NCBI GenBank assembly: GCA_963763135.1
Contig: CAVXNJ010000002.1
Coordinates: forward strand, 81,562 to 145,561
DNA length: 64,000 nucleotides
Source: an uncultured Acidimicrobiales bacterium
GTDB lineage: Bacteria; Actinomycetota; Acidimicrobiia; Acidimicrobiales; JANYDT01
Reading direction: 5' to 3'
Program-made: the position numbers and the translations under genes
Part shown: positions 4,296 through 61,280 of the stretch, one piece after another
Position numbering within the stretch: the first letter of the stretch is position 1
Layout: each line of letters begins with the position of its first letter
Notes under the pieces: model-generated
Seen by the model: only the letters and a program-made list of their open reading frames with translations
Databases searched by the model: none
What the model was told of the DNA's origin: nothing

Positions 4296-4313
4296 GGATT
4301 CCCCCTGGTTGTG

Positions 4314-4409
4314 TTGCAGTGTGAAGTGGTGCGTGTGGAGTGATGTTGCAGTGTGAAGTGGTGCGTGTGGAGTGGTGTTGCAGTTGCAGTGTGGTGTTGC
4401 GTGGAGTGG
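4314..4409. repeat. 32-bp tandem repeat x3 (third copy degenerate) in the 5' leader of the SBP gene; C/A-rich on the mRNA strand
   Basis: Units TTGCAGTGTGAAGTGGTGCGTGTGGAGTG(A/G)TG at 4314-4345 and 4346-4377, degenerate copy at 4378-4409. The sense strand reads CACACTGCAACA.CACTCCACACGCACCACTT. Confidence 0.85.
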
Positions 4410-20028: not shown

Positions 20029-21276
20029 TTATGCAGGTGTGCGCAATCGTCTGCCCGGTTGGATGAGTTCACCAGTGTCGCGTTGCACGATGTCAACCAG
20101 GCCGTCGGGTGCGCGTTCCACCACGAGCTCGTTCTCGTGGGTATGCGGGTGATGCGGGCGACATAGCGGCACCATCTTGTCGACATCGGTTTCGCCGTGG
20201 TCGAGGTGGACTTCGTTGATATGGTGAATTTGGCATTGGTCAGCCCATACCTGGCATTCGGGGTACACACAGCGTTGGTCACGGGCGATGATTGCGAGTC
20301 GTTGAACCGCTGTAGGTTCATGTCGGGCGCGTCCGAATTTGAGGACTTCGCCATGCATGTTCTCGAACAGGTAGTAGAGCTCGGAGCGGGTTTGATCGAA
20401 CAGCGACTCGGTGACTGGGATCGGGCCTTTGCCGATCAGGGTGGCCTTCCATTGGTCCACGTTGAATACGATGATCACCGCGGGTTTCGCGGTTTGCACT
20501 ACCGTTCCCGCTACCGGGGTTGAACCGCCAACCACCCGATCATCATCGCTCGCCTGTTCGGTGGGATTGCTGTCGGTGGCGGTGTCGTAGAACGGTCGGA
20601 CACCAGCGATATCGAGTAATGCGTCGGCCATCCGTTGATCGTGACTGTCACCACCGTGCCCACCCGCGGTTCGGGCGCGTTCGGGGTGATCCTTGCGCCA
20701 TTTGGCATTCACCAACGTAGCCAGCACTTCGCGGAAATGTTTCCCGTCGACCGGTGGCAACAACCCGCGAAACGCCAGCATGCCGTCGGGGCCGTCTCCA
20801 AACCGGAGATAGCGCTGCGCTCGCTGACGTTTCGCCGAGTCATCCCCGTGCTCGGCCGCTAGCCGGAACGATTCGACCGTTACCCTGAACTCTTCCGGTG
20901 ATTGCACCACTGCAACATCCAACAGGTCCTCTGCGCCAGCCATAGCGATGACTCGTTCCAACGCGGCCAGATGTTCGGGCGAAACCACACCCCGGCCGAG
21001 CAGTTCACGGGCTCGAGCGAAATTGTCACACGTCACTGCTACCTTGCTTCGTTGAAGCGCTTCCCCCGCCGACACTCCACACGCCCGAGCAATCGCAGTC
21101 GTTTTGTCTCGCGTCTCCGGCATTCCTGCGATCAACCCGGCCATTGCTGCGTGCGCCTCACGCACGATGCGTTCCAGCTCGGCCAAGCCCGCCATGCGCT
21201 CAACCTGCGTGAATCCACTGGCGTCCATCAACGGGACGTGCACGGCGGCCCACAACGCGATTCCGATCACTTCCAT
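20029..21276 (-). CDS. DUF222 / HNH endonuclease (13E12-repeat-like family)
   Basis: 415 aa. The C-terminus has CQIHHINEVHLDHGETDVDKMVPLCRPHHPHTHE (HNH motif). The long helical N-terminal domain is typical of actinobacterial DUF222 proteins. Confidence 0.85.
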   Translation of the reverse strand: MEVIGIALWAAVHVPLMDASGFTQVERMAGLAELERIVREAHAAMAGLIAGMPETRDKTTAIARACGVSAGEALQRSKVAVTCDNFARARELLGRGVVSPEHLAALERVIAMAGAEDLLDVAVVQSPEEFRVTVESFRLAAEHGDDSAKRQRAQRYLRFGDGPDGMLAFRGLLPPVDGKHFREVLATLVNAKWRKDHPERARTAGGHGGDSHDQRMADALLDIAGVRPFYDTATDSNPTEQASDDDRVVGGSTPVAGTVVQTAKPAVIIVFNVDQWKATLIGKGPIPVTESLFDQTRSELYYLFENMHGEVLKFGRARHEPTAVQRLAIIARDQRCVYPECQVWADQCQIHHINEVHLDHGETDVDKMVPLCRPHHPHTHENELVVERAPDGLVDIVQRDTGELIQPGRRLRTPA

Positions 21277-23357: not shown

Positions 23358-23377
23358 CGCACGGCGAAACGGAGACC

Positions 23378-23885
23378 GGCTACATGAACGTGGGGCTGAC
23401 GAACGTGTGGCCGTAGATGCTCCGCTGTGACGTCTACGGCTACATGAACGTGGGGTTGGCGATCGTGTGGCCGTGGATGCTCCGCTGTGACGTGTACGGC
23501 TACATGAACGTGGGGTTGGCGATCGTGTGGCCGTAGATGCTCTGCTGTGACGTCTACGGCTACATGAATGTGGGGTTGCTGATCGTGTGGCCGTAGGTGC
23601 TCCGCTGTGACGTCTACGGCTACATGAACGTGGGGGTTGGCGATCGTGTGGCGGTAGATGCTCTGCTGTGACGTCTACGGCTACGTGAACGTGGGGTTGG
23701 CGATCGTGTGGCCGTAGATGCTCCGCTGTGACGTCTACGGCTACGTGAACGTGGGGTTGGCGATCATGTGGCCGTAGATGCCTCCGTGACGACATCTACG
23801 GCTACGTGAACGTGGGGGTTGGCGATCGTGTGGCCGTAGGTGCTCGGTGACGACGTTTTCGGCTACATGAACGAGGGGCGGACCG
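23378..23885 (+). repeat. 60/61-bp tandem repeat, about 8.4 copies (MIRU-like minisatellite)
   Basis: The unit is GGCTACATGAACGTGGGGTTGGCGATCGTGTGGCCGTAGATGCTCCGCTGTGACGTCTAC. Copies start at 23378, 23438, 23498, 23558, 23618, 23679, 23739 and 23800, with a partial copy at 23861. Each unit has the hairpin GCCGTAGA-N15-TCTACGGC. Confidence 0.95.
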
Positions 23886-32717: not shown

Positions 32718-32747
32718 ACCGAAGCGGCCCTACCCGGCCGCTTCGGT
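32718..32747 (+). terminator. hairpin after rpsO
   Basis: A perfect 12-bp stem, ACCGAAGCGGCC / GGCCGCTTCGGT, with a 6-nt loop. There is no U-tract. Confidence 0.55.
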
Positions 32748-35734: not shown

Positions 35735-35769
35735 CGAAGGCCGGGTCCTCGTTAAGGACCCGGCCTTCG
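35735..35769 (+). terminator. hairpin after pnp
   Basis: A 14-bp perfect stem, CGAAGGCCGGGTCC / GGACCCGGCCTTCG, with a 7-nt loop. Confidence 0.55.
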
Positions 35770-42886: not shown

Positions 42887-42937
42887 GGGAGTGGGTGCAG
42901 TTCGGCAGCCCGGGGCTGAGCGAATGCACCCACTCCC
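42887..42937 (+). terminator. long hairpin after the secreted-protein gene
   Basis: A perfect 13-bp stem, GGGAGTGGGTGCA / TGCACCCACTCCC, with a 25-nt loop, followed by TTTC. Confidence 0.55.
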
Positions 42938-42947
42938 TTTCAGATCC

Positions 42948-43111
42948 GTCTACCGACGGTGACAGCCGTCAATGTGATCGTTCACTGTGCTTGAGCCCCC
43001 GGGTTCCGGGTCACGTCTACCGACGGTGACAGCCGTCAATGTGATCGTTCACTGTGCTTGAGCCCGGTTCCGGGTCACGTCTACCGACGGTGCAGCCGTC
43101 AGATCGTTCAC
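42948..43111. repeat. 64-67-bp tandem repeat (2.5 copies) comprising the 3' end of tag plus its 3' flank
   Basis: Copy A is 42948-43014, copy B 43015-43078, and copy C (attached to the gene, with 4-nt and 1-nt deletions) 43079-43111. Confidence 0.9.
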
Positions 43112-43697: not shown

Positions 43698-43990
43698 GGT
43701 CGCTCCGGAGTCGTTTTTGTTTCCGGTGGGTAGGTTTTCGGCTCCGGAGCGGTGTTGTCCGCGGCGGGTTTGGTCGCTCCGGAGTCGCCGGGAGTCGTTT
43801 CGTCGCTTGGGGGTCGACTTTTCGGCTCCGGAGCGGTGTTGTCGGTGGTGGGTTTGGCCGGTCTAGGTCGCTCTGGAGTCGTTTCGTCGCTTGGGGGTCG
43901 ACTTTTCGGCTCCGGAGCGGTGTTGTCCGCGGCGGGCTTGGTCGCTCCGGAGTCGCCGGGAGTCGCCGGGCGCCGACCCTTGGGAAACCG
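43698..43990. repeat. tandem repeat with alternating 74- and 94-bp spacing (168-bp super-unit, about 1.8 copies) between tag and dapA
   Basis: GGTCGCTC(C/T)GGAG anchors lie at 43698, 43772, 43866 and 43940. TTTTCGGCTCCGGAGCGGTGTTGTC recurs three times. Confidence 0.85.
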
Positions 43991-46727: not shown

Positions 46728-46805
46728 GCCTGGTCCGGCGGCCGCACGGCCGCCTGGTTTGTGGATGATCTTTGTCGCCCAGCGACCGTTTTCATCCATA
46801 ACGGG

Positions 46806-47429
46806 TTACGCGGCGCTGGCGTCGCGGGGAAACAGCAGCGGTCGCACGTGGGCCGTGCCGCCGCGGTTCTGGCCGGCCATCGGGAGGAAGCGTTCGACGA
46901 TCTCGTCGTGGGTGACTTTCCCGCTGCGGAGGAAACGGCGCAGGAGGTCCTCGGCGCGGCCGGGTCGGGCGTCGTTCATCAACAGGTCGACCGCGGTCCG
47001 AGCGGGTGACGTCACGAGCGCGCCGCTGGGCAGGGCGATGACGTCGTCGGGCTGCAGGTCCGATCTACGGGTCACGATCGCAAGCGGGTTGGGATGACGG
47101 TCGCCGCGGGAGGCGATCAGCTGGGGAACGCCGCGTCGTTCGAAGCCCGGAAAGCCGTGCATCGCCGCCGCGGTGAGGTGCGACAGGGCCGACGGGTAAC
47201 GCCGGTCGGCACCGAACAGCCATGCTCCGATGCAGATGCGCTCCCAGGTGGGTTCGGTGAAGGGGAGAACGTAGATGCTGCGGCAGAGGGGAATCAGCCG
47301 GGCCAGATTCACGCGCCGGTCGATCTGCCGCTCGGTGAACCCGAGCTCGAGCAACTGCCAACGTGCCACGACCCCGTGCTGCGTTGTCATGAGACTGCGG
47401 AAAACTTCATCAACAAACATGAAATGCAT
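46806..47429 (-). CDS. hypothetical protein with an AbiEi-antitoxin-like N-terminal domain
   Basis: GVVARWQLLELGFTERQIDRRVNLARLIPLCRSIYVL resembles the AbiEi_4-type wHTH. The 5' end is AT-rich. No AbiEii partner is present. Confidence 0.5.
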   Translation of the reverse strand: MHFMFVDEVFRSLMTTQHGVVARWQLLELGFTERQIDRRVNLARLIPLCRSIYVLPFTEPTWERICIGAWLFGADRRYPSALSHLTAAAMHGFPGFERRGVPQLIASRGDRHPNPLAIVTRRSDLQPDDVIALPSGALVTSPARTAVDLLMNDARPGRAEDLLRRFLRSGKVTHDEIVERFLPMAGQNRGGTAHVRPLLFPRDASAA

Positions 47430-55583: not shown

Positions 55584-55913
55584 GTGACACGTTCTCCGTC
55601 CCCTTTATCGGCATACGCCCAAGCGAAGCGAAGCTACGGAGCGTGGCTTTTGGGGAATGCCCTCGAAATGAGACCGGTGGACTACCCGTAGCCATCTGCC
55701 GAAATAGCAGGTTGAGCGTTGACGTAGGAACGCGGCTCAGCGTTGAACCGCTGCTCAGAGTGGTTCTGCATCCGGGGCCAGCTTGTCTTGCACTTGTCCT
55801 ATCGACCGATAGGCTGGAGCAACCGTTTTCCCCGCTTCAGTTCCGATGGCCGCCGGCGAACCGCCCGTGTTCGCGTCTCCTATCGGAGCATCACACTCTT
55901 AAAGGAGCCTCCC

Positions 55914-57134
55914 GTGGCCAACAAGATCAAAGTCGTAACCCCCGTCGTTGAGATGGACGGCGACGAGATGACCCGCATCATCTGGCAGTTCATCAAAGAC
56001 AAGCTGATCCTTCCGTACCTCGACATTGATCTGAAGTACTACGACCTCGGCATCGAGTCACGCGACGCCACCGACGACCAGATCACGATCGACTCGGCCA
56101 ACGCCACGAAGCAGTACGGCGTCGCCGTGAAGTGCGCCACGATCACCCCCGACGAAGCTCGCGTTGAGGAGTTCGGCCTGAAGAAGATGTGGAAGTCGCC
56201 GAACGGCACGATCCGCAACATCCTCGGCGGCGTGATCTTCCGTGAGCCGATCGTCATCTCGAACATTCCGCGTCTCGTTCCGGGCTGGACCAAGCCGATC
56301 GTGATCGGCCGTCACGCGCACGGCGACCAATACAAGGCGACCGACTGGAAGGTCCCGGGTGCCGGTACCGTCACCATGACCTACGTGCCGAAAGACGGCA
56401 GCGCTCCCGTCGAGATGAAGATCGCCGACTACGGCGACGACGGCGGCGTGGTGATGGGCATGTACAACTACAACGACTCGATCCGAGACTTCGCCCGTGC
56501 TTCGCTGCGCTACGGCCTCGACCGCAACATGCCGGTCTATCTCTCCACGAAGAACACGATCCTCAAGGCCTACGACGGCCAGTTCAAGGACCTCTTCGAG
56601 GAGATCTACCAGACCGAGTTCAAAGCCGAGATGGACAAGGCCGGCCTCACCTACGAGCACCGCCTCATCGACGACATGGTCGCCTGTGCCATGAAGTGGG
56701 AAGGCGGCTACGTCTGGGCCTGCAAGAACTACGACGGCGACGTGCAGTCCGACACCGTGGCCCAGGGCTACGGCTCGCTCGGTCTGATGACAAGCGTGCT
56801 TATGACTCCTGATGGCAAGACCGTCGAGGCCGAAGCCGCGCACGGCACCGTCACGCGCCACTACCGCGAACACCAGAAGGGCAACAAGACCTCCACGAAC
56901 CCGATCGCCTCGATCTACGCGTGGACCCAGGGTCTGGCCTACCGCGGCAAGATGGACAACACCCCCGAGGTCACCGCCTTCGCCCACGCGCTCGAGCAGG
57001 TATGTGTTGCGACGGTCGAGTCCGGCAAGATGACCAAGGACCTCTCGCTGCTGATCAGTAAAGACGCCCCCTGGCTCACCACCGAAGACTTCCTCGACGC
57101 CCTCGACGAAAACCTCCAGGCCAAACTCGGCTAA
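55914..57134 (+). CDS. icd: NADP-dependent isocitrate dehydrogenase (homodimeric eukaryote-like type)
   Basis: The GTG at 55914 follows an AAAGGAG Shine-Dalgarno. Contains [29 protein letters not shown] and [14 protein letters not shown]. Confidence 0.93.
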
Positions 57135-57161
57135 CAGAGGTTCTGTTCCGTCCCGCTAAAG

Positions 57162-57207
57162 ACGGGCGGCTCGTGCGTGAAAACGCACGAGCCGCCCGTT
57201 TGCTTTT
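57162..57207 (+). terminator. intrinsic terminator after icd
   Basis: A perfect 17-bp stem, ACGGGCGGCTCGTGCGT / ACGCACGAGCCGCCCGT, with a GAAA loop, followed by TTGCTTTT. Confidence 0.85.
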
Positions 57208-57228
57208 AGCACCCCGCTCCTGGTGCTC

Positions 57229-57630
57229 CGCGAGGTTTGGATGTTTGTTGCCGCTGGGCGGGCAGATTCATCCAAACGTGTGGTGGTGTGTGCTGCGGGT
57301 TCGCGAGGTTTGGATGTTTGTTGCCGCTGGGCGGGAAGATTCATCCAAACGTTGGGTTGGGATCGGCGGGTGCTCGTTTGTGCTCGCCGAGCGAGCAGTT
57401 GTGTCCGTACGTTGAAGCGGGCTGCCGAAGGTCCGCGAGGTTTGGATGTTTGTTACCGCTACGCGGGCAGATTCATCCAAACGTGTGGTGGTGTGTGCTG
57501 CGGGTTCGCGAGGTTTGGATGTTTGTTACCGCTACGCGGGCAGATTCATCCAAACGTGTGCGGGTGGGAGCTGCTTGTTCGCGAGGTTTGGATGTTTGTA
57601 ACCGCTGGGCGGGCAGATTCATCCAAACGT
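57229..57630. repeat. five copies of a 51-bp hairpin-containing repeat at 73-bp spacing (one 132-bp gap)
   Basis: CGCGAGGTTTGGATGTTTGT(T/A)(G/A)CCGCT(GG/AC)GCGGG(C/A)AGATTCATCCAAACGT occurs at 57229, 57302, 57434, 57507 and 57580. The outer stem is GTTTGGATG/CATCCAAAC and the inner stem CCGC/GCGG. Confidence 0.95.
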
Positions 57631-57645
57631 TGGGAACGGTGGGGG

Positions 57646-58677
57646 TTACCGGCGGCGGCCGCGGTTTATCGCTCGGGTGCGTTCCACCTGGCGTTGGGCC
57701 AGATCGGTCTGCTCGGTGATGAGCTTCTTCCAGCCCGCGACGCGGGCGGCGTCGAGCGTGCCCGCTACCACTGCGGCGTTGACCGCACATCCGGGTTCGA
57801 GGTTGTGCTGGCAGTCGGCGAACCGACAATTGAGCGCCACGGTTTCGAGGTCGCTGAAGGCCTCGGCGGTGCCCGCTTCGGCGTCCCACAACTGCAGTTC
57901 CCGAAGGCCCGGGGTGTCGATGAAGAGGGTGCCGTCGTTCATCACCAGAAGTTGGCGGTGTTTCGTGGTGTGACGGCCCCGGCCGTCGTTGCGGACGTCG
58001 CCGGTGGCCATGATCTCGGTGCCGGCGAGCCGATTCACGAGCGTCGACTTTCCGACGCCGGAGGATCCCACGATCGCGAGCGTCTTCCCGTGACCCATAT
58101 GTGCGCGTATCAATTCCAGGCCGAAGTCGGTGACCGACGATACGGGGACCACTTCGCTTCCGACTCCGATGGCCCGAACCTCGGCGGCCAGGGCATCCCG
58201 TACTTCCGGCGTCACCGCGTCGGCTTTCGTAAGCGCGACTACGATCTGCGCGCCGCTTTCGAAGGCCATTGCGAGGAAGCGTTCCAGGCGTCGGACGTTG
58301 AAGTCGGAGCCGTAGGCCATTGCGATGATCAAGACGTCAACGTTGGCCGCGAGGGGTTGGGCCTCGGTCGTGTCACCTGCGACTTTTCGGGCCACGAGGG
58401 TCCGGCGCGGTACCAGGCCCTGGATCGAACCGACCTGTAGGGTGCTGCCCGGCTTGATGACCACCCAGTCGCCGACCGTCGGCATGTCGAGCGCCTGCGA
58501 CACGTGTTTGAATCGGCCGGTAAGCGAACAGATGGCCACGGCGTCTTCGGTGACGACCTCGATGTGGCCTCGAGCGTTGGAAACGACACGGCCGACGATC
58601 GAACCGGCGGGCACCTGAAGCTGACCCATCGTGCCGAGCCCAAGGTCGGCGAGAGACGGGCGTGCTGCGCTACTCAA
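57646..58677 (-). CDS. rsgA: ribosome small-subunit-dependent GTPase A
   Basis: Contains the circularly permuted GTPase motifs (LTKAD and GSSGVGKSTLVN) and the zinc knuckle CRFADCQHNLEPGC. The start is uncertain (TTG at 58677 or ATG at 58629). The ATG at 58761 would overlap the upstream gene by 77 nt. Confidence 0.85.
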   Translation of the reverse strand: MSSAARPSLADLGLGTMGQLQVPAGSIVGRVVSNARGHIEVVTEDAVAICSLTGRFKHVSQALDMPTVGDWVVIKPGSTLQVGSIQGLVPRRTLVARKVAGDTTEAQPLAANVDVLIIAMAYGSDFNVRRLERFLAMAFESGAQIVVALTKADAVTPEVRDALAAEVRAIGVGSEVVPVSSVTDFGLELIRAHMGHGKTLAIVGSSGVGKSTLVNRLAGTEIMATGDVRNDGRGRHTTKHRQLLVMNDGTLFIDTPGLRELQLWDAEAGTAEAFSDLETVALNCRFADCQHNLEPGCAVNAAVVAGTLDAARVAGWKKLITEQTDLAQRQVERTRAINRGRRR

Positions 58678-59750: not shown

Positions 59751-59885
59751 GTCGGGTTGGGGACCAGGGCTGCCGGGTTGGAGGCCAGGGCTGCCGGGTT
59801 GGGGACCGGAGCGCCAGGGCTGCCGGGTTGGGGACCGGAGCGCCAGGACTGCCGGGTTGGGCTACGGAGCCCCGGAGTCGGGGGA
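59751..59885. repeat. 21-29-bp tandem repeat, about 4.5 copies, between prmA and the hydrolase gene
   Basis: The unit CAGG(G/A)CTGCCGGGTTGG(G/A)G(A/G)C(CGGAGCGC) is repeated head to tail. Confidence 0.85.
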
Positions 59886-59891
59886 CTCGGC

Positions 59892-61280
59892 CTACGGGCG
59901 CTCGAGTACGAGACCGACCCAGTTGCCATCCGTGGAGACGGCTGACAGTCGAAGGCCGTAGCGCTGGTAGGCGTCGACGACGGCGGCTCGTTGTTCCTCG
60001 ATGAGGCCGGCGAGAATCAGGTGGCCACCGGCTCGGACCCGTCCGCTGACGGGTTCGGCCAGCAAGATCAGCACCGGCGCCAAGATGTTGGCAACGACGA
60101 CGTCAAACGTTCCGGCGACGTCGGCAACCGGGCTGGTCGACGCGGTCAGCACCTCCCGACTGACCCCGTTGCGATCAGCGTTGGCCAATGTGTTGTCGAC
60201 CGCGGCCGCCTCGATGTCGACGGCGACCACGCTCGTCGCGCCCAATAGTGCTGCCGCGACGGCCAGGACGCCGCTTCCACATCCGACGTCGAGCACCGTG
60301 CGTCCCGCTTGCACCAGCGTCTCGAGGGCCGCCAGCGACAGGGCGGTCGTCGGATGGGCTCCGGTGCCAAAGGATCGGCCCGGGTCGATCACAAGCGGCT
60401 TCAAGCCCGAATCCGACCCCGGTCCCGACGCCTGGCCTGGGCCGAGATGGAGCGGGTCGAGATGGGGAGCCAGTGCGTCGTCGTCCCACCAACCGGGGAG
60501 GAGCAGGAACCCGCCAAGCTGCGTCGGCTCAAAGTGCTCACGCCACGCGTCGAGCCAGTCGTCGCCCAGGAGAACCTCGAAGCGGGGATTCCAGGCCGGA
60601 TCGAGCTCGGCCTCGGCGTCGGCGGCGGCCTCGTCGGAAGGAAACCCCGCCCGTAACGCGATCGTTCCTTCCGCCAGCGTCACCCGAGACCTGGGCCACG
60701 TGAGCTCCCCGACCGTGAGCTCCTCGATCCCGATGGTTCCGAGGTCGTACAGCTCGCTGCTCACCCACTCGAGATCGTCGGGCGAGATCGCAAGCTCAAC
60801 GACGGGAAAGCGGGCCGAGTCGGCCCCCGGGAGCTTGCGGACAACCCGAAAGGTTTCATAGGTCACGAGCGTGTCGTCGGTGATGGACCACGCGGGATCG
60901 TTGATATGTGTACGTATTTCTTCGGTGAACTGTGACCAGAACCGTTCGTGTCCTTCCCGCCAGTGCTCGACCGACATGAACGACTCACCTTCGGACTTCG
61001 CCTGTTCCCAGGTCACTTCGCTGATGGGCAGAACCGAAACCGTCAACGACTCCACCAACGCGATCGGCGCCCCGTTGGTACTGCGCATCACGAACACCGT
61101 ACCGGGCGATGGCGCGTCCTCGGGGTACATCTCGTTCAGCACGACGAGCGACATCGTGCCGGTCTTGCGCCCGGTCAGGGCGAGGCCGTTGAGTCGTTCC
61201 CGAAGCGGTCCGGGAGTTGCGAACTCCCAGTTGGGATAGGCGGAAAGCGCCTCGGAGGAAAGTAGTGGTTCGGTGGCCAA
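59892..61280 (-). CDS. prmA: ASCH-domain / ribosomal protein L11 methyltransferase fusion protein
   Basis: The N-terminal ~150 aa are YhfF-like ASCH (LALTGRKTGTMSL...EGESFMSVEHWREGHERFW). A complete PrmA follows (FEPTQLGGFLLLPGWW, DPGRSFGTGAHPTT, VLDVGCGSGVLAVAA). Confidence 0.75.
   Translation of the reverse strand: MATEPLLSSEALSAYPNWEFATPGPLRERLNGLALTGRKTGTMSLVVLNEMYPEDAPSPGTVFVMRSTNGAPIALVESLTVSVLPISEVTWEQAKSEGESFMSVEHWREGHERFWSQFTEEIRTHINDPAWSITDDTLVTYETFRVVRKLPGADSARFPVVELAISPDDLEWVSSELYDLGTIGIEELTVGELTWPRSRVTLAEGTIALRAGFPSDEAAADAEAELDPAWNPRFEVLLGDDWLDAWREHFEPTQLGGFLLLPGWWDDDALAPHLDPLHLGPGQASGPGSDSGLKPLVIDPGRSFGTGAHPTTALSLAALETLVQAGRTVLDVGCGSGVLAVAAALLGATSVVAVDIEAAAVDNTLANADRNGVSREVLTASTSPVADVAGTFDVVVANILAPVLILLAEPVSGRVRAGGHLILAGLIEEQRAAVVDAYQRYGLRLSAVSTDGNWVGLVLERP

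Follow-up and report, generated by a model that had tools for sequence, protein, structure and literature searches.

Five copies of a nested hairpin are arrayed between the convergent icd and rsgA genes of this Acidimicrobiales genome, and they probably represent the tandem amplification (5.7 copies of a 73-nt unit) of a lineage-specific REP-like palindrome by slippage or unequal recombination, with the hairpins acting as REP/BIME-like structures at RNA 3' ends. Comparison of copies from the window (the whole 64-kb stretch of DNA that was analyzed) with copies from related metagenome contigs shows that the hairpin belongs to a family that is dispersed at low density and whose structure is kept by compensatory change. 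The amplification itself is, as far as the data go, private to the source genome.

The icd/rsgA array and its surroundings

The array occupies positions 57229-57630 and consists of five 51-nt units that are 92-100% identical and all lie on the same strand as direct repeats (Table 1). Each unit contains a 9-bp outer stem (GTTTGGATG/CATCCAAAC) and a 4-bp inner stem (CCGC/GCGG), which are separated by a 7x7 internal loop; the triloop is TGG in units 1, 2 and 5 and TAC in units 3 and 4. The linkers between the units measure, in order, 22, 81, 22 and 22 nt. In these respects the array is as the original prediction had described it: five nested-hairpin units with both stems and both triloops, joined by 22-nt linkers, two of them identical, save for one 81-nt insert. 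The prediction had also treated the 22-nt stretches as spacers separate from the repeat, and here our analysis departs from it. Linkers 1 and 3 are identical (linker A), and linker B matches linker A at 16 of 22 positions (73%, counted from the sequence), so that A and B are diverged copies of one linker and the true repeat is a 73-nt unit made of the hairpin and a G/T-rich linker. Short stretches before units 1 and 3 resemble the 3' part of the linker, and TRF reports a period of 73, 5.7 copies and a score of 419 for the array, a head-to-tail repeat within the 10-100 bp range of minisatellites and VNTRs. The hairpin modules are conserved at 92-100%, the linkers at 73-100%.

Table 1. Positions of the array, its flanking genes and the second hairpin locus in the window.
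Feature	Position	Strand	Description
Hairpin following RNase J	46737..46754	+	GC-rich, GGCGGCCG-CA-CGGCCGCC; after RNase J stop (46727); RNase J by Pfam
Sixth, diverged hairpin copy	46759..46801	+	R1 35.7 bits, E ~9e-8; not in model
icd, NADP-dependent isocitrate dehydrogenase	55914..57134	+	NCBIfam NF006156, 758 bits; ORF 55743-57134, likely start GTG 55914
icd terminator hairpin and T-rich tail	57162..57209	+	inverted repeat I5, 100% complementary
Unit 1	57229..57279	+	nested hairpin, triloop TGG; R1 61.3 bits
Linker A (GTGGTGGTGTGTGCTGCGGGTT)	57280..57301	+	
Unit 2	57302..57352	+	triloop TGG, C35A; R1 60.1 bits
81-nt unique insert	57353..57433	+	own small hairpin TGCTCGC-CGA-GCGAGCA
Unit 3	57434..57484	+	triloop TAC, G22A; R1 57.4 bits
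Linker A, second identical copy	57485..57506	+	
Unit 4	57507..57557	+	identical to unit 3
Linker B (GTGCGGGTGGGAGCTGCTTGTT)	57558..57579	+	
Unit 5	57580..57630	+	triloop TGG, T21A and G22A; R1 58.5 bits
rsgA, ribosome small-subunit GTPase	57646..58629	-	TIGR00157, 136 bits; ORF extends to 58761

The array is not a product of chance, given nhmmer E values of about 1e-19 per unit. Within the window, a 15-mer of the unit has five exact matches and one unrelated match at 3 mismatches, with 0.77 matches expected at up to 3 mismatches, and no exact or near-exact unit lies elsewhere in the 64 kb. The 81-nt insert does not qualify as a decayed copy of the terminator region upstream, since 21% of shuffled sequences reached its alignment score of 16.

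The units differ at columns 21, 22, 28, 29 and 35, all five of which are unpaired. With 26 positions paired, the changes would all fall outside them with a probability of about 0.02 for five independent events and about 0.05 for four, and the confinement of variation to unpaired columns is thus weak evidence for structure. The original prediction had gone further and read the constant stems with varying loops as conserved pairing, which the array itself does not bear out: the stems never vary among the five units, no compensatory change occurs inside the array, and such invariance is expected of recent duplicates. Recent duplication alone may account for the conservation seen within the array. 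Folded singly, the units reach -20 to -23 kcal/mol on the plus strand versus -17 kcal/mol on the minus strand.

Upstream of the array, the hairpin at 57162-57199 has a 17-bp perfect GC-rich stem with a GAAA loop, followed by TTGCTTTT. It is an ordinary intrinsic terminator of icd, as had been predicted; a simple terminator pattern scan did not flag it, and the call was made by reading the sequence. Read on the minus strand, where it is followed by CTTTAG, the same hairpin may provide a weak end for rsgA transcripts. On the rsgA side, the first array hairpin lies about 20 nt past the stop codon. The likely rsgA start at 58629 agrees with relatives of 327 aa (P0002, P0003 and P0005).

The window has a GC content of about 64% and represents core chromosome, with genes for PNPase, DapB, DapA, RNase J, FtsK, icd, rsgA, prmA and transporters. 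Among the approximately 45 main ORFs surveyed with Pfam and NCBIfam, which have housekeeping and transport functions only, there were no cas, transposase, RAYT or integrase genes. The window is also rich in tandem repeats: with a period of at least 15 and a score of at least 100, we counted 9 arrays in 64 kb, whereas control loci totalling 1404 kb have 13 and close relatives have 3 in 48 kb. Of the long-period arrays, those inspected (periods 32, 60, 73 and 84) appear to be rich in G+T on the plus strand, which has a positive GC skew. Intergenic amplification appears to be a general property of the source genome, which lowers the prior for any one array being a purpose-built device.

A dispersed hairpin family kept by compensatory change

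Relatives were found through RsgA homologues of 71-92% identity, which led to metagenome contigs, and the hairpins in the gap were located by synteny and not by motif. In the contigs that span the gap, icd and rsgA are convergent neighbors, except in one (L088), which has another gene between them, and the gap measures about 54-159 nt. A single GGATG...CATCC hairpin sits in the same gap in L086 (RsgA 92% identity), L081 (90%) and L082 (80%), with an interior between GGATG and CATCC of 25 nt in the first two and 23 nt in the third; the hairpin of L086 has 13 of 16 left-arm bases in common with the window unit. Other hairpins occupy the icd gap in L087 (92%), L084/L085 (79%) and L089 (71%). In L089, the gap contains a tandem pair of 88-nt units built on a hairpin of its own, a parallel amplification in the same place.

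The presence of a homologous single hairpin in the relatives' gap indicates that the array unit descends from a resident gap hairpin. The five-unit array is absent from the closest relatives (L086 and L081; RsgA 90-92%), which have one hairpin each. These sequences are short-read metagenome contigs, a type of assembly that tends to stop at repeats (L083-L085 terminate right at the gap hairpin), so that the absence of arrays in relatives is biased and arrays are perhaps under-sampled. The best Icd relatives, with 90% and 87% identity, come from Ilumatobacteraceae MAGs whose loci (L001 and L002) show neither rsgA synteny nor an array and are uninformative. The RNase J protein of the window has a 100% identical public counterpart (P0121), encoded on a contig of 573,903 nt, whereas exact look-ups of its RsgA and Icd proteins gave no record, and no conspecific genome turned up. 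Searches with the exact unit pattern gave 0 matches in GTDB representative genomes and 0 in JGI metagenomes, an RsgA-based scan of metagenome contigs gave no relative, and blastn of the whole icd/rsgA gap against plasmids and phages gave no match.

Copies outside the icd gap were sought with a covariance model (R1) built from the four distinct window units and three orthologous gap hairpins. Its background did not exceed 14 bits in the window, nor 19.4 bits in 1.43 Mb of unrelated loci. The model detected a sixth, diverged copy in the window, which had been missed by nhmmer with the five units and was found by the structure-aware model alone. This copy has a 10-bp outer stem, a 5x5 internal loop, a 5-bp inner stem (GTCGC/GCGAC) and a CCA triloop. 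It lies in the 78-nt gap between the convergent RNase J gene and ORF 46806-47390, 4 nt from the stop codon of that ORF. Both window loci have the same layout, an ordinary terminator followed by a family hairpin.

In a 93% relative, the orthologous gap next to RNase J also has a copy (R1 26.4 bits), which was recovered in two independent assemblies (L092 and L093) and reads GTGGATG-GTTTGTG-GCGG-TGG-CCGC-TGGTTTT-CATCCAC. Its arms are micro-duplicated, in L092 as 11 nt x 3.8 and 24 nt x 2, and with the array and L089 this makes repeated duplication of hairpin arms or whole units a recurrent event in the lineage. In a 92% relative (L090/L091), the RNase J gap is 21 nt long and has no hairpin. A further copy (L088:32-74; 31.8 bits) lies in-frame within the hypervariable linker of prmA, 31 nt from the end of the contig, and its left arm (GGATGTTTCCGGT) is near-identical or identical to that of the icd-gap hairpin of L081. 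The original prediction had proposed a genome search to tell REP-like dispersal from specificity to the locus; the copies at 46759-46801, in L092/L093 and in L088 show that the element is not specific to the icd/rsgA gap.

The density of the family is low. It occupies 2 loci in the 64-kb window, where a broader model (R2) found no further copies, and 2 places (prmA in L088 and the RNase J gap in L092/L093) in 62 kb of relatives outside the ascertained icd gap. By itself, the GGATG...CATCC pattern turns up 2.9 times per 64 kb in the 1.43 Mb of other loci, a background rate, and so the motif alone does not define the family. Its consensus is TTGnGGATG-N25-CATCCnCAA, a 43-47-nt nested hairpin composed of an outer stem, a symmetric internal loop, a 4-5-bp inner stem and a triloop. 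Normally, the element is present as a single copy in 3'-3' convergent gaps in this lineage of Acidimicrobiia, which lies near Ilumatobacteraceae.

In an alignment of ten family copies, 95% of the cells pair, and compensatory changes are seen in 7 of the 13 pairs, including all four of the inner stem. The covariation score is 0.46, versus at most 0.11 with the partners slid. The five pairs of GGATG/CATCC never vary, and their spacing of 25 nt is constant except for 23 nt in one copy. Between these genomes, rsgA is only 34-46% identical at four-fold degenerate sites; neutral sites are thus saturated, and phylogenetic inertia does not explain why the core, the spacing and part of the left arm are retained. 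The explanation is either constraint on the sequence, for example from a protein that reads it, or a spread of copies after the genomes diverged.

These comparisons support the view that the hairpin is a selected structure and not random satellite sequence. The original prediction had favored a structured RNA or protein-binding module over neutral satellite DNA and had proposed covariance analysis with homologs. It was right to infer a selected structure, judged by the pairing and the compensatory changes across copies, though for reasons that lie outside the array; a discrete RNA gene is not borne out, given no Rfam match and no promoter-like site. It had also set its view against that of a common dispersed REP element with no transcript and no support from covariation. 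Dispersal was indeed found, with copies in the RNase J gap and in prmA, and the support from covariation exists as well.

Comparison with known elements

Ordinary terminators in the window (35735-35769, 32718-32747 and 57162-57199) are GC-rich perfect hairpins, whereas the family hairpins are 47-53% GC in a 64% GC genome. The latter read 5'-TTTGG...CCAAA-3' on both strands, which places the T's upstream and the A's downstream of the stem, opposite to the order in a terminator. No U-tract follows the array units on either strand, the next bases being GTGTGG on the plus and CTCGCG on the minus strand. Mycobacterial RNA polymerase requires a U-tract (PMC3993855), and termination at the units, if any, would therefore be non-canonical. 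Judging from these sequence features, the family hairpin is not an ordinary terminator. TTTG-headed hairpins make up 5 of 41 perfect-stem hairpins in the window, 4 of 19 in close relatives and 6 of 776 in control loci. A promoter/terminator pattern scan returned 0 sites and carries little weight, having also missed the icd terminator. Rfam gave 0 matches at the gathering score in the window, and at E<=10 the array had only a chance-level match.

Several further candidates were rejected. A coding repeat does not fit a period of 73 nt, which is not a multiple of 3, and the long open frames that cross the array are artefacts of the kind common in high-GC DNA. On our reading, the arms run GTTTGG...CCAAAC, opposite in order to the RYYYAAC...GTTRRRY of integron attC sites. 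In the copies at 46759 and in L092 and L081, the sequence TGTGGATGA is reminiscent of the DnaA box TGTGGATAA, but its CACA is not conserved in the family, and the window units have CATCCAAAC instead. A CsrA-type site was dismissed because GGA sits in the stem and not in the loop.

REPs typically occur at high copy number, often above 100, dispersed through the genome, and REP/REPIN sequences are associated with a gene for RAYT, a Y1/HUH transposase. REP-like elements are well studied in Proteobacteria; to our knowledge, neither they nor tagged REPs have been described in Acidimicrobiia. The family differs in that its host is an Acidimicrobiia actinobacterium, that no RAYT gene is present in the 64 kb surveyed and that its copy number is apparently low. 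In form, a REP is a short (20-40 bp) imperfect palindrome that lies outside genes and mostly 3' of ORFs, where the neighboring genes are co-directional or convergent, and BIMEs are clusters in which the orientation alternates (PMC2817692, PMC3733652). The family resembles them as an imperfect, lineage-specific palindrome that folds with -17 to -23 kcal/mol and is given an orientation by an asymmetric internal mismatch. Its extragenic copies sit just past stop codons and preferentially in convergent gaps (icd/rsgA and RNase J/ORF in the window, and also in relatives), and one copy is intragenic; REPs inside genes have been reported (PMC3733652). The family hairpin further resembles REPs in being single or in regularly spaced clusters with short linkers, in its varying presence among relatives and in its invariant stem block. 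It differs in its length of 43-47 nt and its nested two-stem form, and the five array copies are direct, whereas BIMEs alternate. Tagged REP superfamilies carry an unpaired GTAG or CGTC at one end of the palindrome (PMC3733652). No such tag stands beside the stem in the flanks of all ten family copies, and the window units are flanked by CGCGAG and GT. Likewise, there are no target-site duplications or terminal inverted repeats of the kind found in MITEs flanking any family copy.

The array also invites comparison with the MIRU and VNTR loci of Mycobacterium, which lie between co-directional genes of operons and often contain small overlapping ORFs, the period being divisible by 3. The likeness consists in head-to-tail intergenic repeats of 40-100 bp in a high-GC actinobacterium, with several unrelated arrays per genome, a probable origin by slippage and a copy number that is expected to vary. 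The present array differs in its 73-nt period, in its location between convergent genes and in its palindromic unit, which is also dispersed singly.

Rickettsia palindromic elements (RPE) are 100-150 bp long and can sit in-frame inside protein-coding genes, as does the copy in the prmA linker of L088. They are longer and far more abundant than the family hairpin and unrelated to it in sequence; here there is one intragenic copy, and it lies near a contig end.

Hairpin clusters and non-canonical 'I-shaped' terminators have been proposed for high-GC bacteria (PMC8355165), a proposal that has been contested (PMC3993855). The array is similar in having several hairpins near a stop codon in a convergent gap and no U-tract. 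In both window loci, the family hairpin accompanies a canonical GC-rich terminator and does not replace it; its 47-53% GC and its conserved core, which a generic terminator does not need, are further differences. As the family fails the tests for tagged REPs, BIMEs, CRISPRs, canonical terminators, MITEs and Rfam families, we file it as an element of the broad REP-like kind, under no named family.

Origin and possible function

Under the preferred explanation, the resident hairpin and its linker would have been multiplied by replication slippage or unequal recombination, to which the source genome seems especially susceptible. Once transcribed, the hairpins would act as REPs and BIMEs do, that is, as 3'-UTR structures that slow 3'->5' exonucleases, and they could dampen read-through between icd and rsgA without being canonical terminators. 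REP325 of E. coli acts as a terminator and stabilizer (bioRxiv 10.64898/2026.03.23.713779). By likeness to it, any activity of the family hairpin would most likely be at the RNA level, probably as a 3'-end RNA block. The invariant GGATG core is probably read by a protein, either an RNA- or ssDNA-binding factor or a transposase, and the copy number of the array is probably close to neutral.

It is also possible, though we consider it rather doubtful, that the palindrome is a selfish, non-autonomous REP/MITE-like element with no function for the host, whose folded single-stranded DNA is recognized by a transposase (RAYT-like or other) encoded elsewhere. GGATG/CATCC would then be the recognition site, and the array, the second locus and the prmA copy would be products of its activity. 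This explanation overlaps with the preferred one and differs from it on function only. It would fit a core and spacing that stay invariant at saturated neutral divergence while the rest co-varies, and likewise the differing presence of the hairpin between the close relatives L090/L091 and L092/L093, the near-identical left arm at different loci in L081 and L088, and the in-frame position of the prmA copy, which counts for less in that it lies only 31 nt from a contig end. The low density, the 64-kb window without transposase, RAYT or integrase genes, and the copies without target-site duplications or terminal inverted repeats argue against mobility. So does the hairpin kept at the same gap in four genomes with saturated silent sites, which suggests retention and not turnover.

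A bolder and more speculative possibility is that of an untagged, nested REP-type system in Acidimicrobiia, in which a dedicated protein, either a transposase or an RNA- or ssDNA-binding factor, would read the invariant GGATG-N25-CATCC core, and which would spread from gap to gap, insert in-frame into genes such as prmA and seed tandem arrays. If true, this system and the many other G/T-rich arrays of the lineage would together suggest that intergenic sequence expands by an unusual mechanism with a strand bias.

We regard it as unlikely that the array is a neutral, locus-specific minisatellite, in which an ordinary bidirectional terminator of icd and rsgA was duplicated by slippage, the likeness to other hairpins arose by convergence and nothing was selected. 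Much within the array would suit such an origin, namely the invariant stems without internal covariation and the two identical linkers, which suggest recent duplication, as would the many unrelated tandem arrays of the genome and the closest relatives without the array. Convergence, however, does not account for the detection of the sixth copy at 35.7 bits, and likewise of the L092 and L088 copies, by a model that does not contain them, or for a GGATG/CATCC block that is conserved while neutral sites are saturated. In addition, the units lack the features of a terminator, and both gaps have a separate canonical one.

The identical hairpins repeated at a regular 73-nt spacing, their conserved GGATG core, the better folding of the plus than of the minus strand and the better conservation of hairpins than of linkers might also suggest a dedicated array, either one ncRNA or long 3'UTR that sequesters a protein in the manner of CsrB/RsmZ sponges, or an operator- or centromere-like DNA array for a dimeric protein. 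We consider this very improbable, as relatives with 90-92% RsgA identity have one hairpin in place of the array and the family consists mostly of single copies; moreover, GGA is buried in the stem and not exposed in the loop, the only Rfam match (at E<=10) is at chance level and no promoter-like site was found. A degenerate or orphan CRISPR-like array, which the regular repeat/spacer look and a palindromic repeat of 51 nt, near the upper CRISPR repeat length, might bring to mind, is effectively refuted by 'spacers' that are homologous (two identical, a third at 73%) and of low-complexity G/T-rich sequence, by the lack of cas genes among the main ORFs of the window (Pfam/NCBIfam) and of phage or plasmid matches to the array, and by the occurrence of the same hairpin singly at other loci.

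The finding opens no new mechanism or long-standing question. If the family holds, the range of REP/BIME elements would reach into a deep actinobacterial lineage, in a variant without the GTAG/CGTC tag, and the conserved GGATG core could be used to search for a putative binding protein. In automated annotation, such arrays run the risk of being taken for CRISPRs or sRNA genes. For strain typing in an environmentally common, poorly cultivated group, the icd/rsgA array would be a candidate VNTR marker, as would the other eight long-period arrays of the window.

Tandem arrays of the window

Tandem arrays were about 15-fold denser in the window than in 1.4 Mb of control loci, actinobacterial and other. 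The plus strand of the long-period arrays looks G+T-rich, as read for periods of 32, 60, 73 and 84 nt. GC skew over the window is positive on this same strand, which is probably the leading strand.

Arrays and coding features in the window and in a related contig
Feature	Position	Strand	Context	Description
Intergenic array	4312-4391		solute-binding protein gene/next gene	32 nt x 2.5
ORF with DUF222 domain	20029-21276	-
Tandem array	23377-23878			60 nt x 8.3, 90% match (TRF)
Tandem array	within 42887-43101		after nested hairpin	67 nt x 2.4
Tandem array	43735-43965		divergent gap, glycosylase gene/dapA	84 nt x 2.8
Intergenic array	59753-59861		prmA stop to likely alpha/beta-hydrolase gene start	29 nt x 2.9 (also 21 nt x 2.6)
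prmA	59892-61280	-		PrmA, 462 aa
Tandem array	L088:2846-3030		directly upstream of rsgA	17 nt x 10.9, 97% match

The biggest array of the window (TRF score 777) has a 60-nt unit containing an 8-bp inverted repeat, TCTACGGC...GCCGTAGA. When two such units were folded, the plus strand was far more stable than the minus strand (-68 versus -32 kcal/mol). The copies differ by indels, which argues against a coding role, and the ORFs overlapping this array gave no Pfam match.

Mobile-element-related content of the window is hinted at by a single feature, the DUF222 ORF, whose domain is characteristic of the REP13E12/HNH-associated family of mycobacteria. The ORF lies 36 kb from the five-unit hairpin array between icd and rsgA, and no link between it and the hairpins was seen.

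Gaps around icd and the methyladenine glycosylase gene

A consensus terminator scan of window 56800-58000, which spans the icd/rsgA gap, returned no sites and missed a 17-bp GC-rich stem at 57162-57199 that is followed by TTGCTTTT.

The convergent gap ahead of the methyladenine glycosylase gene (42887-43101) contains a nested hairpin with a 13-bp outer stem (GGGAGTGGGTGCA) and a 25-nt interior, plus an inner stem. The orthologous gap of L090, a metagenome contig from a relative, measures merely 54 nt and contains GTTTGTGTGTG-N25-CACACACAAAC (L090:161-207), which is identical in geometry to the REP-like family hairpin but lacks its GGATG. On the other side of the glycosylase gene, the divergent gap to dapA spans 467 nt in the window versus 122 nt in L090 and a second such contig, L091, and every 84-nt unit of its array carries a CTCCGGAGCG/CGCTCCGGAG inverted repeat.

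PrmA and the hairpins of relatives

PrmA is 445-466 aa long in relatives, compared with 462 aa in the window. The NCBIfam models for prmA span 262-290 positions. The best-scoring model stretch on the window protein starts at about residue 291, a second matched stretch being reported without a position. A large N-terminal region, which carries no family assignment, is conserved among relatives. In the related contig L088, a family hairpin, TTTGGGGATG-N25-CATCCCCAAA (L088:32-74), lies in-frame within the hypervariable linker of prmA, where it encodes the peptide SFGDVSGTGRTESIPK and sits just ahead of the IDPGRSFGTGAHPTT motif; this copy is provisional because the contig end is 31 nt away.

The arrays of another relative, L089 (1130-1288 and 3554-3908), include two hairpin units of 88 nt each in the icd/rsgA gap as well as a 15-nt unit repeated 23 times. 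In the RNase J-gap hairpin of L092 (2817-2923), each arm has been micro-duplicated separately, the left as GGTTTGTGGAT x 3.8 and the right as two copies of the 24-nt CATCCACACTC(G/C)CGCTACGC(A/G)GCG. L092 and L093, two independent assemblies, have identical sequence here.
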